NCBI GenBank assembly: GCA_951406725.2 | Contig: OX597818.1 | Coordinates: 48,794,001 to 48,858,000 of the forward strand | Length of the DNA: 64,000 nt | Source: Octopus vulgaris | Taxonomy: Eukaryota | Direction of reading: 5' to 3' | Shown: positions 3,867 through 63,332 of the stretch, one piece after another | How positions within the stretch are numbered: position 1 is the stretch's first letter | Layout of the letters: each line of letters starts with the position of its first letter | Made by a program: the position numbers and the translations under genes | The notes under the pieces: model-generated | The model's database searches: none | Told to the model about the DNA's origin: nothing | What the model saw: only the letters and a program-made list of their open reading frames with translations

Positions 3867-5031
3867 CACTTAAATAGGTATACTACACTCAAAATAGAAG
3901 ACTAGACAGTCGTAGCTGGAATGACATTGATCTTTGATCTGCTCTGTTTGTGTTAACCTTAAACCAGACAAGATTATCTATAAATTCCATCCTACATTAT
4001 TTTGTATATTAGCTTGAAACTTTTATGATTTCTCTTATCTTAGTTTCTACTTCTCAACCATTGAGTGGTATAATATCAGTTATTTTGTCTTGACTTCACT
4101 AAGGATAAACCCTTGAAGGATTTAGCCGAAAAAAAAATCAACCTCAGTGATTTTTTGGTCCACTGGTCTCTTTCGCCAAACCACTAAGTTACAGGAATGT
4201 AAATGAACCAATTCTGGTTGTCAAGTGGTGGGATGGACAAACACAAATATACACACACTCACATACATACACGTGCAACAAGCTTCAGCACAGTTTCCAT
4301 ATACCAAATTTACTCACAAGGCATTGGTCAGTCTGGGGCTATAGTAAAAGGTACTTTGCTCCAGGTGCCACACGATGTGTTTGAACCTAAAACCACATTG
4401 TTGCAAAGTGAACTTCTTAACCACATTTTCTTTTAATAATTAAGTCAGAAAAGAAATAGCAGTACCCACTTTCTGTTTCAAGGCCTCTATGGCTTGTAGG
4501 AGGACATTATTCTTAGTAGTTGAATGCCTGCAACAGAGGCACCTCAGGACCAGCTAGGGCAGTGGATTAGGGTTAGTACTAATGAATAATGAATCTATTT
4601 AATAAGCTACCACACGGGGTTATAATCAATTACGGTCAGTAATAGTAATTAGTCAGGATTTATTGAATTAGGTTAAACCTTTTATTCTTATTAAGGATAT
4701 TCTTTAGACCTTTTGCTACCATATTTCTGCTAAAATTTACACCCTTTTTATTTCAATTAATTTTTTTTTTAATACTGAAAACTAACTTTGTCATTATTAA
4801 GCTGGTGTATGGAAAATGAAATTTTGATGGGAAAATTTTAATGTAGATCTCTTTAAAAGAATGAATTTGTACTATAGGACCAAGGGTAATCTCCAACCAG
4901 TTGGTATAAAAAAAGTGAAGAATTGCTGTACACACACAAAAAAAAAATTATACAGTTCTATATTTAAGAGATGAGGAATTATGTACATTATTTACATTTG
5001 ACGGATACTTGTCCTTATCTTGTTTGTTATT

Positions 5032-5077
5032 AACACAACATTTCGGCTGATATACCCTCCAGCCTTCATCAGGTGTC
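5032..5077 (-). ncRNA. Minimal type I hammerhead ribozyme motif
   Basis: Minus strand gacac CTGATGA a ggctg gagggtatat cagcc GAAA tgt t gtgtt; stem I gacac/gtgtt, stem II ggctg/cagcc. Confidence 0.7.
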
Positions 5078-5345
5078 TTGGGGAAATTTAAAACCTGGAG
5101 TCTCATCCTAAGGTATCATTATTATTATTATTATTCAGGTCACTGCCTGGAATCGAACTCGGAATCTTGGGGTTAGTAGCCCGCGCTCTTAACCACTACG
5201 CCACGGGCTTATGGCGTAGTGGTTAAGAGCACGGGCTACTAATCCCAAGATTCTGAGTTTGATTCCAGGCAGTGACCTGAATAATAATAGTAATAACATC
5301 GAAAAATACCTTAGGAATGAGAACCCAGGTTTGAAATTTTCCCAA

Positions 5346-5391
5346 GACACCTGAAGAAGGCTGAGGGGTATATCAGCCGAAACATTGTGTT
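5346..5391 (+). ncRNA. Minimal type I hammerhead ribozyme motif
   Basis: gacac CTGAAGA a ggctg aggggtatat cagcc GAAA cat t gtgtt. Confidence 0.65.
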
Positions 5392-5832
5392 AACAACAAA
5401 CAAGATGAGGACAAATATCCGTCAGATGTAAATAATGAAGAATGATTTTGTTAAGTTTTATATGACATAAACCTTTTGTAACTATTTTAGTTTCACACAC
5501 ACACACACACACACACATGTGCACACGTGTCATTTATCATTAACTTGTTTCAGTCATTGGACTACAGCCATGCTGAGGCACTGCCTTGAGGAGTTTTAGT
5601 CAAACAAATTAACTTCAGTGCTTATTTTAAGTGACCTGAATAATAATAATAATAAAAATACCTTAGGATGAGACTCCAGGTTTGAATTTTCCCCAAGTCA
5701 CCTAATGAAGGCTGGAGGGTATATCAGCCGAAATGTTGTGTTAACAAACAAGTATCCGTCAAATGTAAATAATGTAAAAAAAAAATTATAAAAGCAAAAC
5801 TGATTTATAATCATTTTTATGTTCTGTTACAG

Positions 5833-6033
5833 GTATCCGTTTTAGTATGGATGTCAACCTGGATGAGGTAAAAGCTTTGGCTGCTCTTATGACCTACAAA
5901 TGTGCATGTGTTGATGTGCCATTTGGTGGTGCAAAAGCTGGTGTTCGCATTGATCCAAGTAAATACAGTGAAAATGAACTTGAAAAAATCACTCGTAGAT
6001 TGGCTGTAGAATTGTCTAAAAAAGGTTTCATAG
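5833..6033 (+). CDS. GLUD1: Glutamate dehydrogenase (mitochondrial, animal type), first exon in window (gene is 5'-partial)
   Basis: ttacag acceptor; (G)[68 protein letters not shown] contains the catalytic Lys motif PFGGAK; donor G|gtaagt. Confidence 0.96.
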
Positions 6034-10420: not shown

Positions 10421-10760
10421 TGTGAAGGCATATGGCTCAGTGGTTAGAGCATCGAGCTTACGATCATGAGGTTGTGAGTTCGAATCCTGGACCAGGCTGC
10501 GTGTTGTGTTCTTGAGCAAGACACTTTATTTCATGTTGCTTTAGTTCACTCAGCTGTAGAAATGAGTTGCGATGTCCCTGGTGCCAAGCTGTATCGGCCG
10601 TTGCCTTTCCCTTGGATAACATTGGTGGCGTGGAGAGGGGAGGCCGGTATGTATGGGCGACTGCTGGGCTTCCATAAAAACAACCTTGCCTGGAATTGTG
10701 CCTGGGAGGGTAACTTTCTATGTGCAACCCCACGCTCAGTCATGACTGAAGGGGGTCTCA
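10421..10760 (+). mobile_element. tRNA-derived SINE
   Basis: tgtgaaggcatatggctcagtggttagagc..ttacgat..gagttcgaatcctgg (A and B boxes); degenerate relatives at 10131-10265 and 50845-51140. Confidence 0.75.
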
Positions 10761-33825: not shown

Positions 33826-33949
33826 GATATGTATGTTAACGCTGGTGGTGTAACTGTTTCTTATTTTGAGTGGTTGAAAAACCTTAACCATGTAAGCTAT
33901 GGCAGATTGACATTTAAGTATGAAAAAGATTCAAATTATCATCTTCTTG
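33826..33949 (+). CDS. GLUD1: Glutamate dehydrogenase exon
   Basis: tttacag acceptor; [41 protein letters not shown]; G|gtaaga. Confidence 0.96.
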
Positions 33950-34043
33950 GTAAGAATAATTTTACAGTTCTATATTTAAAAGATGAGGAATTATGTACAT
34001 TATTTACATTCGGCAGATATTTGTCCTCATCTTGTTTGTTGTT

Positions 34044-34089
34044 AACACAATGTTTCGGCTGATATACCCTCCAGCCTTCATCAGGTGTC
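34044..34089 (-). ncRNA. Minimal hammerhead ribozyme motif
   Basis: Minus strand gacac CTGATGA a ggctg gagggtatat cagcc GAAA cat t gtgtt. Confidence 0.7.
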
Positions 34090-34352
34090 TTGGGGAAATT
34101 TCGAACCTGGATTCTCATCCTAAGGTATTGTCATTATTATTATTCAGGTCACTGCCTGGAATTGAACTTGGAATCTTTGTTGTTAGCAGCCCGCTCTCTC
34201 AACCACTATGCCATATGCCTGTGGCGAAGTGGTTAAGAGTACGGGCTATTAACCCCAAGATTCCGAGTTTGATTCCAGGCTGTGACCTGAATAATAATAA
34301 TAATATCGAAAAATACCTTAGGAATGAGAACCCAGATTTGAAATTTCCCTAA

Positions 34353-34398
34353 GACACCTGATGAAGGCTGGATGGTATATCAGCTGAAATATTGTGTT
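34353..34398 (+). ncRNA. Minimal hammerhead ribozyme motif
   Basis: gacac CTGATGA a ggctg gatggtatat cagct GAAA tat t gtgtt; stem III ATAT is palindromic. Confidence 0.7.
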
Positions 34399-34723
34399 AA
34401 CAACAAACAAGATGAGGACAAATATCCGTCAAATGTAAATAATGAAGAATGATTTTGTTAAGTTTTATATGACATAAACTTTTTGTAACTGTTTTAGTTT
34501 CACACACACACGTGTCATTTATCATTAACTTGTTTCAGTCATTGGACTACAGCCATGCTGAGGCACTGCCTTGAGGAGTTTTAGTCAAACAAATGAACTG
34601 CAGTACTTATTCTATTCACCTTTTCTGCTGAATGTCTAAGTGGCAGGGACATAAACAACCCATCATCGGTTGTCAAGTGATTAGATGGATCGTGATAAGA
34701 ACAGGCATAAAGATATTCACACA

Positions 34724-45440: not shown

Positions 45441-46904
45441 TAGATGTTCCCCTGGATCATAGGGGATAGAGCCAAGAGGGTATCGATGTCTGCTCACAAC
45501 CACATAAGCACCTAAGACAATTTACAAGGCATGAAAGCTAAGTCATTTTCAGTTCAAAGTGACAGCTGTAGTAAAACAGCTAATTTTAATTTATCATTAA
45601 ATTCTTGTCTCTAAATTATTTAACAGTGAAAAATAGATTTTATTAAAAATTTGAATTGAATGGCAAATGTGAAAATTTATTGACAATCTTTTTTAACTGG
45701 AACAAAGTCCTAAAGAGAGACACAACACACCAACTGTTACATATGGTGGAAAAATAAAAGAAACCTGTTATATAGGGTGCTCTTACTTTTCCTCTGTGTG
45801 GTTCAGAAGTTCACATCACAGCTGTGAGTTTTCAGGTTCTATTCCAAGGTGGAGCATCTTGGGCAAGTGTCTTCATTTATAACCCCAGGTCAGCCAATGA
45901 TTTGTAAGTGAATTTGGTTGACAGAAACTGTGTGGAAGCCTGTCATATATGTATCATCATTGTTTCAGCATCCATTTTTCCATCCTAGCATGGATTGGAT
46001 AGAATTCATTGAGGCAGATTTTTCATGGATGGATGCCTTTCTTTTTACTAACTATAGCATAATGTCAGGGAGTGTCTTGCTCAAGACCACAATGCTGTGC
46101 TTGGCACACAAATCAAAATCACCACATGCACACACACACACACACACATAAAGGAGGTAGTCAGAATTTTGGATAATCATTTATTTAGCACTTTCATCTC
46201 ATTTCAGAGATTCATTAGGATTGATATTTTTAGAGAAACTACACCTTTTATATATATGCAGGTTAGTTGAAAAAATTATGGTGTTGAATTGGGAAGAGAA
46301 TGTTCTTTGTTATTTTGAGTCTATACAGAGAGATGAGGACAGCAGGAAAAGTTGTAACATCATCTGTTGGATTTAAACATTGTATCTGCTGCAAACTTTA
46401 GAACTGTACAAGCCACTACATCAACAACAACAACCTTTGACTGCCTAAATTAACACACTTAAATTAAGTAGCCACAATAACATATTAGTGACCAGTCTAT
46501 GAGGATCTCAGTCCACACAGTATTCAAGGTATAATATTGATGAAAAAAACCCCTGATATACTAAGTATCAAACTTTAAGAACCAATAAGTACTGAAGTCA
46601 ATTTGGACTCATGGTAGTATCCCTGTTTGGTTGCAGTCCAATGATTGAAATTATTGTAATGACTTTCATCATAGAGGAAATACTTCTATTGCTAATTGTT
46701 GGTGTTTTTGTTATAATTCAATATATTGGTATCCCAACTACAAATTTGTAGCTGTATAGGCTTAGGTGTGGCTGCATGACAATAAGTTTGCTTCCCAACC
46801 TCATAGTTTCAGGTTCAATACCACTCCATGGCACCTTAGGTGAATGTCTTGTATAACCCTGGGCTGACCAAAACCTTTGGTCGACAGAAACTGAAAGAAG
46901 TTAA

Positions 46905-60874: not shown

Positions 60875-61152
60875 TCATTCATTTGACTGTGGCCATGCTG
60901 GAGCACCATATATACATACATACATATATATACATATATATATATATATGTATGTATGTATATATGGTGCTCCAGCATGGCCACAGTCAAATGAATGAAA
61001 CAACTAAAAGAGTATGTGTGTGAATATACATGCATGTATATATGTATATACATATTTATTCATATGTAAATTCATGTATGTATATATATATGGGTGAGTA
61101 TATAAATGTGTAGATATGTGTGGGTACACGCGTATACATATTTGTGTGTGTG

Positions 61153-62331: not shown

Positions 62332-62690
62332 AACTCTGTCTGTTTTTTTATGTTTTATATATATTCTTTATAATATTAATGTAGAATATAGAATATATAG
62401 TAAAATGAAATGAAGTATTGATTGTCTTAAGGTCCCAAGTTGTGACAGGAGTGTTTCAACCATATATATATATATAGAACCACTCCTGTCACAACTTGGG
62501 ACCTTAAGACAATCAATACTTCATTTCATTTTACTATATATTCTATATTCTACATTAATATTATAAAGAATATACATAAAACATAAAAAACAGACAGAGT
62601 TGGAATTCCTTTGAATAACATATATCCCTCTATACACAATCATACAAACTCTTTTGTATGATTGAGTCCAACATAGGTCATATATTAGCA
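62332..62690. mobile_element. Palindromic element (arms about 125 bp, (TA)n spacer) with unpaired tail
   Basis: aactctgtctgttttt..aggagtg / cactcct..aaaaacagacagagtt. Confidence 0.8.
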
Positions 62691-63181: not shown

Positions 63182-63229
63182 GTTTCTGATGAAGGGATAT
63201 CTAAAATATCCTGGAAACACCTGTAAGAC
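63182..63229 (+). ncRNA. Minimal hammerhead ribozyme motif
   Basis: gttt CTGATGA a gggatat ctaaa atatcct g GAAA cacctg TA agac. Confidence 0.65.
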
Positions 63230-63332
63230 CTTCTCTTTATAAAGGTTCCGAAAATCTTTCGCAGCCTTGGATTTCTTATCTCATTCTATTAATTTTATAT
63301 ATACATACATATTTATATATATATATATATAT

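Follow-up and report, generated by a model that had tools for sequence, protein, structure and literature searches.

The window analysed here, a 64,000-nt stretch of the Octopus vulgaris genome, contains a fold-back at 33952-34456 (the 33952 locus) whose two arms, at 33964-34224 on the minus strand and 34222-34444 on the plus strand, are 84% complementary over 456 nt. Sequence comparison places the fold-back within a 12-bp target-site duplication (TSD) with one mismatch, at 33952-33963 on the left and 34445-34456 on the right. A sequence-only reading of this DNA had proposed both the fold-back and the TSD, along with hammerhead motifs, (TAA)n tracts and a pair of tRNA-like heads that face outwards, and all of these are present. 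In the numbering of the repeat described below, the left arm is an inverted copy running from -4 to +269. It comprises a tRNA-derived head (34144-34220, minus strand; A box 34203-34213, B box 34159-34167, the latter mutated), a minimal type I hammerhead motif (34044-34089, minus strand) in which CTGATGA is intact and GAAACAT is a decayed form, and a tail at 33964-33998 (minus strand) consisting of N-terminal coding sequence of an open reading frame (ORF) of a Penelope-like element (PLE). This one-sided unpaired extension is real and measures approximately 35 nt (+235 to +269). The right arm, a direct copy (+8 to +234) without the tail, is joined to the left by a 3-nt overlap. It begins with a head at 34222-34290 (plus strand; A box 34222-34232, CpG-decayed B box 34267-34275), and a (TAA)n tract at 34291-34306 (plus strand) separates this head from the PLE ORF start at 34324-34444 (plus strand), which opens with an ATG at 34324, holds one stop in this copy and overlaps a second minimal type I hammerhead motif (34353-34398, plus strand; CTGATGA intact, GAAATAT decayed). 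With mutations in both B boxes and GAAACGT lost from both hammerheads, the 33952 locus is probably inert.

The five arms in the window represent, on sequence comparison, one original insertion and one re-copying. The second copy at 4953 is not an independent insertion. Approximately 170-190 bp of its right flank are shared with the 33952 locus; the two loci match from the left TSD to approximately 170 bp beyond the right TSD, and the host flank taken along corresponds to 34445-34614. The derived block at 4952-5775 consists, in order, of a left-arm copy (4952-5203, minus strand, +8 to +269) with five derived differences in common with the arm at 33964-34224, a right-arm copy (5201-5437, plus strand, -4 to +234), the copied right TSD and host flank (5438-5629), and a fifth arm in the opposite sense (5631-5775, plus strand, approximately +67 to +235). 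This last arm is an inverted partner that has three derived differences in common with the left arm at 4952-5203, and the whole block is bounded by its own 14-bp TSD (4938-4951 and 5776-5789). The simplest reading, we infer, is that the same machinery re-inserted, 29 kb away, a minus-strand RNA spanning the 33952 locus. As the block took approximately 170 bp of host flank, its template did not begin at the centre of the palindrome. The 33952 locus lies just downstream of a glutamate-dehydrogenase-family exon and the 4952 locus upstream of another such exon on the same strand (Pfam; Glu/Leu/Phe/Val dehydrogenase gene exons, PF02812 and PF00208, at 33829-33948 and 5838-5999, plus strand), and both insertions appear to be intronic. 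Capture of host DNA by PLEs has been described (PMC3846280), and 4938-5789 appears to be a dated example of it in apparently the same gene.

Origin of the arms

Each arm is almost certainly the 269-nt pseudo-LTR (pLTR) of an autonomous PLE. We searched the host genome (2.8 Gb, 227 contigs) with one arm, scored 40 of 4,442 candidates and fetched 30 loci, in one of which (L008) the end of a PLE ORF lies directly upstream of the arm. When the ORF end was used as the query, arm sequence was found directly 3' of the ORF C-terminus in 30/30 loci (L008 included), with at least part of the head present downstream in 29 of them. With an N-terminal ORF piece as the query, arm and tail were continuous into the ORF in 13 of 30 loci, and one locus of this set (L072) starts at the head. 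The ORF-head junction is also crossed by sequence pieces in each of three further organisms, among the matches listed for five organisms. On the majority pLTR map the A box lies at +8, the B box at +53, (TAA)n at approximately +78 to +92, an ATG at +114 and the hammerhead at +143 to +188; the last 156 nt (+114 to +269) are the first 52 codons of the ORF. Read from +114 across the hammerhead, the frame aligns with the N-terminal part of the intact 847-aa PLE protein P0005 (45% identity, 237 aa, E 3e-62), and the remainder of the ORF matches the same protein with 58% identity over 700 aa. Together with the locus searches, these matches identify the arm as a pLTR whose 3' 156 nt are coding. The arms had been described as non-coding, which is refuted by the PLE ORF opening within them; the suggestion that an autonomous PLE might share the arm and tail was borne out by the N-terminal (13/30) and ORF-end (30/30) loci.

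The complete unit is 2.6 kb long and reads tRNA-like head, (TAA)n, ATG, hammerhead in the first codons, reverse transcriptase (RT), GIY-YIG-type C-terminus, stop, a few dozen nucleotides and the next head. The RT is a Pfam RVT_1 match. Pfam detected no GIY-YIG domain in this family's own pieces and matched one only on the distant homologue P0045, and the endonuclease (EN) call is based on that homologue and on GIY-YIG motifs aligned in the family ORF. No CxxC (zinc finger) was seen in the RT-EN linker. The 30 best protein matches in the host genome all belong to this one PLE family, with 78-93% DNA identity and no intact ORF among them; copies diverge from the majority by a median of 5.4% (78 pieces), and the close protein relatives P0001-P0005 show 53-66% identity. 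The Penelope-type architecture that had been proposed is confirmed in that pLTR, tail, inverted arms and hammerhead are all tied to a PLE ORF. The family has the features tested of EN+ PLEs, namely an ORF with RT and C-terminal endonuclease, a pLTR overlapping the ORF start, an inverted 5'-truncated copy, a one-sided tail and a minimal hammerhead motif, and to judge from these sequence features the element would work like a Penelope/Poseidon PLE. Expansion of the pLTR's (TAA)n tract, or its invasion by other repeats, is frequent (L043, L216, L054). At three further loci (L025:1150-1500, L069 and L089), N-terminal ORF pieces are fused directly to a pLTR beginning at -5 or -6, junctions that suggest template jumps from the 5' end of a short RNA.

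The window arms read GAAAcat (two), GAAAtgt (two) and GAAAtat (one), which had been explained as CpG decay of a common ancestor. This explanation holds because the commonest form, present in 52/137 family copies, is GAAACGTT. Both CTGATGA and GAAACGT are kept in 39/137 copies, and stems I and II fold; family copies in this way carry the predicted minimal type I hammerhead motif with a palindromic ACGT stem III. Rfam and ARAGORN, including relaxed ARAGORN runs, returned no credible tRNA or hammerhead at the arms, and the tRNA and hammerhead assignments draw on motifs, on folding and on how the heads compare with host tRNAs. Elsewhere in the window there is a weak Rfam Hammerhead_3 match at 46186-46226 (minus strand; 24.5 bits, E 0.85, below the cut-off) and a further CTGATGA...GAAA motif at 63186-63230 (plus strand), outside the PLE family. 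Near-perfect hairpins at 60878-60995 and 62406-62528 matched several Rfam miRNA models below their cut-offs, the first being a repeat end folded about a simple repeat.

The tRNA-derived head and its candidate promoter

Aligned with host tRNA-Arg(TCG), the head matches without gaps over 52 nt with a score of 40, compared with 14 +/- 2.4 for shuffled sequences (maximum 23 among 200 shuffles). Against the 27 distinct host tRNA sequences available, which represent few isotypes, tRNA-Thr scored equally, with gaps. The A and B boxes are 34 bp apart and intact in the majority head, where the cloverleaf keeps 9/21 pairs. These boxes fit the Pol III consensus, and the proposal of a tRNA-derived head with A and B boxes stands on the gapless tRNA-Arg match and the intact majority boxes. 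In a donor-SINE search of 1.29 Mb, other SINE heads scored 8-14 bits against the head and tRNA-Arg scored 13 bits, so that the head could have come from either a tRNA or a SINE. The head of a different tRNA-derived SINE family, at 10427-10491 (plus strand) in the window, bears a weak likeness to the PLE head (13.9 bits).

We evaluated the 5' ends of 67 head-reaching segments from a set not chosen by ORF. Fourteen end at +5 to +20, 47 at -12 to +4 and six further upstream; at the rate of truncation seen within the head, 10.6 ends would be expected at -12 to +4 (P 9e-27). The same boundary was found in 19/27 of the subset not chosen by head (P 3e-11), and the outermost peak of 5' ends falls at -7/-6. 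An A/B-box tRNA-derived head and a defined 5' end at that head are features of SINE2-type elements. RNase P processing was considered as the origin of the boundary and rejected, given that the acceptor stem keeps only 2/7 pairs.

Judged from sequence, Pol III transcription from the head would likely yield SINE-like RNAs and might possibly yield coding RNA. A TATAA at -34 to -30 lies 24-28 nt upstream of a G at -6. This position suits the TATA-like box that lies at -31/-24 in type 2 Pol III promoters (PMC7279448), and a Pol II TATA as well. An Inr-like TCACT, too, lies upstream of the head. In an ordinary PLE, Adineta Pen2a, a palindrome, a TATA and an Inr-like TCACT accompany the sharp 5' end of the pLTR (PMC3846280), so that with both motifs present here Pol II transcription is possible. 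The sense strand of the 2,572-nt majority unit contains no TTTT, and GGGG is absent too. The probability of lacking TTTT was 0.045 under synonymous shuffling of the 2,169-nt coding part and 0.09 or 0.25 under Markov models of order 1 or 2, a weak signal for Pol III; natural copies have 0.53 TTTT per kb, below 22 of 23 distant PLE ORFs. An A/B pair follows the ORF in 5/23 family copies and in 0/33 distant PLEs by the same strict test, for which the control is insensitive (only 2/33 showed a hammerhead within the stretch scanned). In two RNA runs depth was equal on both strands, 80% of reads continued into unlike sequence and no pile-ups of read starts or ends were seen, in a library unsuited to showing cleavage or circular RNA. 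The equal strands, run-on reads and lack of pile-ups indicate mostly passive transcription of embedded copies. Reads show a threefold step at the head, which genomic copy structure would also give.

Taken as a whole, the best explanation is probably a PLE with a tRNA-type promoter in its pLTR from which Pol III makes SINE-like copies, and it seems reasonably probable, on sequence grounds, that the short copies derive from Pol III transcripts. It is a tentative possibility that Pol III reads the entire 2.6-kb terminator-free unit to supply the RT/endonuclease message, with the downstream repeat as a built-in SINE. The strongest rival, which we consider unlikely, accepts the same PLE pLTR and treats the head as a passenger, either a tRNA fragment or a SINE head with (TAA)n in the UTR of a master copy, the 5' boundary being set by Pol II from the upstream TATA or by self-priming at the -7 to +5 hairpin. 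The pairing of TATAA and TCACT upstream, as in Adineta Pen2a, would fit this, palindromes at pLTR 5' ends have been ascribed to self-priming (PMC3846280), and several copies (L014, L139, L142) contain short fold-backs centred on the hairpin. The RNA reads included no Pol III-type product. The family is moreover a single near-uniform burst, with 2.5% of variants shared between loci, so that selection on the boxes cannot be shown. Set against this rival, the boundary falls 13 nt upstream of a perfect A box, both boxes survive though the stems have decayed, and a hairpin of 4-5 bp is unlikely, we infer, to halt approximately 90% of cDNAs if the RNA continued. The lack of TTTT in the unit argues weakly in the same direction.

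Copy structure and mobilisation

Outward-facing inverted pairs occur in 40/66 loci with arm matches, and we analysed 39 arm pairs after leaving out one ORF-level inversion, the locus sets having been chosen in part for full arms. Exactly one arm is tailed in 34/39 pairs, the tailed arm ending close to +269 and its partner at around +226 to +249, and a rough automatic call gave TSD candidates of 9-17 bp in 21/39. The length of the inverted arm varies from approximately 40 nt to full, and both arms reach the head in 10/39 pairs, or in 12 if two split by microsatellite growth are counted. With so few twin-headed pairs, the palindrome is not the unit of the element, contrary to what had been supposed; it is a known PLE insertion footprint, and the divergent transcription proposed from its centre would be a by-product of head-to-head insertion. 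Inverted truncated copies with a one-sided 30-40-nt tail are stated to be general for PLEs (PMC8557442). Variants are shared at 5% between arms of one insertion compared with 2.5% between loci, figures compatible with both fold-back and two-primer joining.

Sampling of sixty 10-kb stretches at round coordinates (600 kb) yielded seven insertions, which scale to approximately 13,000-67,000 in the genome. All seven lack the ORF body, and this excess of short over ORF-bearing copies would suit a separate non-coding SINE or retrozyme whose unit is the palindrome, divergently transcribed from its centre and mobilised by a PLE in trans, the form in which the element had been proposed. So would the one occasion on which the 33952 palindrome was re-copied whole, and the slightly lower divergence of short copies (0.041 versus 0.066), though these were picked for likeness to the arm. 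The majority base is however the same at 239/240 positions in short copies and ORF-linked pLTRs (54 and 59 segments), with no diagnostic positions between them, so that the sample contains no separate SINE lineage. The head lies within the autonomous element, the inverted arm ranges from approximately 40 nt to full length, and the re-copied block includes approximately 170 bp of host flank. We regard a separate family as very improbable, and its palindromic part is largely refuted; mobilisation by PLE enzymes, the other part of the proposal, is supported. The short copies also differ from a SINE2 family, which apart from a shared 3' end is distinct from its driver, in that the whole short element is its partner's pLTR. 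The long inverted repeat within a TSD would speak for a DNA MITE, or for a fold-back element that has terminal inverted repeats. Such an element can be dismissed, in agreement with the sequence-only reading on the MITE, because TSD length and inner junction vary, the ends are asymmetric rather than symmetric terminal inverted repeats, single-arm copies exist and the arm is continuous with an RT ORF.

Under the favoured model of a Pol III-type promoter within the pLTR, transcription would start approximately 6 nt before the head. From a downstream pLTR it would give a short RNA running into the flank, and from an upstream pLTR an RNA across the whole TTTT-free ORF. Both strands of the target would be nicked by the PLE protein, at sites 9-17 bp apart, with reverse transcription beginning at two internal sites, near +234 and +269; such a pair of start sites was measured in vitro for the Anolis PLE. 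The Anolis protein cuts and extends both strands, and its RT starts at two internal sites bounding the tail (PMC11167929). Microhomology would then join the two cDNAs, or a single cDNA that folds back; where both cDNAs reached the 5' end of the RNA, at which there is a short self-complementary stretch, a twin-headed palindrome with a one-sided tail would result. The hammerhead may cut weakly, as a dimer or with help from the protein, and the ends of the copies would not be set by it. In the Anolis PLE the hammerhead overlaps the ORF start, cuts only with protein and is dispensable for insertion (PMC11167929).

The usual account makes SINEs parasites of LINEs and confines small-RNA promoters to short non-coding elements. 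Here the terminal repeat of a protein-coding Penelope element holds a putative tRNA-type promoter, and with this likely promoter head a single element would be able to supply its own enzyme as well as short SINE-like copies by the tens of thousands. If Pol III does transcribe from the head, a SINE would have a direct route of origin from its own driver, tRNA-plus-hammerhead elements of the Sm-alpha kind would gain a named enzyme partner, and how a 2.6-kb Pol III RNA is translated would become a question. If the full unit were also read by Pol III, SINE and driver would be combined in one element, whose message would be a natural, uncapped product of Pol III. Annotation is affected as well: PLE end-repeats are probably catalogued as SINEs or MITEs in tens of thousands of copies, and head-to-head pLTR pairs in introns can form long double-stranded RNA.

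Comparison with known elements

The closest known counterparts are Penelope/Poseidon-type EN+ PLEs (Anolis PAc, PMC11167929; Adineta Pen2a, PMC3846280; PMC8557442), which have one ORF with RT and C-terminal endonuclease, a pLTR that overlaps the ORF start with a hammerhead in the first codons, an inverted 5'-truncated copy, a 30-40-nt tail at one end arising from two RT start sites, TSDs of approximately 9-10 bp, solo pLTRs and host-DNA capture. In contrast, the octopus pLTR begins with an A/B-box tRNA-derived head and (TAA)n, and solo pLTRs that start at the head dominate the family; the portions of these three accounts used here describe TATA/Inr-type pLTR promoters and do not mention a tRNA head. 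Minimal hammerheads of PLEs (PMC4209133) likewise have a conserved core, almost no stem III, a palindromic ACGU, a short stem I and an extra base before stem II, whereas the predicted cleavage triplet in the octopus family is GUU. A 2014 study described such hammerheads in opposite-strand pairs, with 100-700 bp between the two motifs (PMC4209133).

Among shorter elements, a tRNA-SINE with a hammerhead is by itself already known in Schistosoma Sm-alpha, which is short, related to tRNA, present in high copy number and equipped with a type I hammerhead. The Sm-alpha descriptions drawn on here name no autonomous partner, whereas the octopus short element is the end-repeat of an autonomous element and has a minimal hammerhead. 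The TRIMp3 elements Cassandra, Helenus and Ajax also have a Pol III promoter derived from a small RNA within a terminal repeat (PMC10886601); they are non-autonomous LTR elements, whose autonomous partners are argued to need Pol II, and the octopus repeat is instead carried by a coding PLE. Animal non-LTR retrozymes are short hammerhead-bearing derivatives of PLE pLTRs (10.64898/2026.07.22.740005, PMC7229834). They form head-to-tail arrays, whereas octopus copies are mostly single or head-to-head, as in the window, and have a tRNA head; the word tRNA does not occur in the available text of the preprint (10.64898/2026.07.22.740005). One array was seen among 30 loci chosen by the 3' half (L134:490-1762, minus strand), where a full pLTR is followed by five head-to-tail units of approximately 190-210 nt (approximately +81 to +269) with a hammerhead motif in each. 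This six-unit array is similar to retrozymes and, on its sequence, may be a retrozyme-like derivative born from this PLE.

Octopus is also reported to have the tRNA-derived SINEs OK, OR1 and OR2 (reportedly Ohshima and Okada, 1994), of which OR2 is a CORE SINE. By description alone, which is the basis of this comparison, they resemble the short form of the PLE as tRNA-derived, high-copy short retroposons. A repeat-annotation paper for octopus (PMC13282606) gives no family descriptions in the text consulted, and its repeat library may include this PLE. Literature searches, as distinct from a comparison with Repbase, Dfam, SINEBase or the 1994 octopus SINE paper, listed no PLE whose pLTR derives from a tRNA. 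The inverted arms, the tail and the hammerhead are published traits of PLEs, and the tRNA-derived head of the pLTR is the part that looks new.
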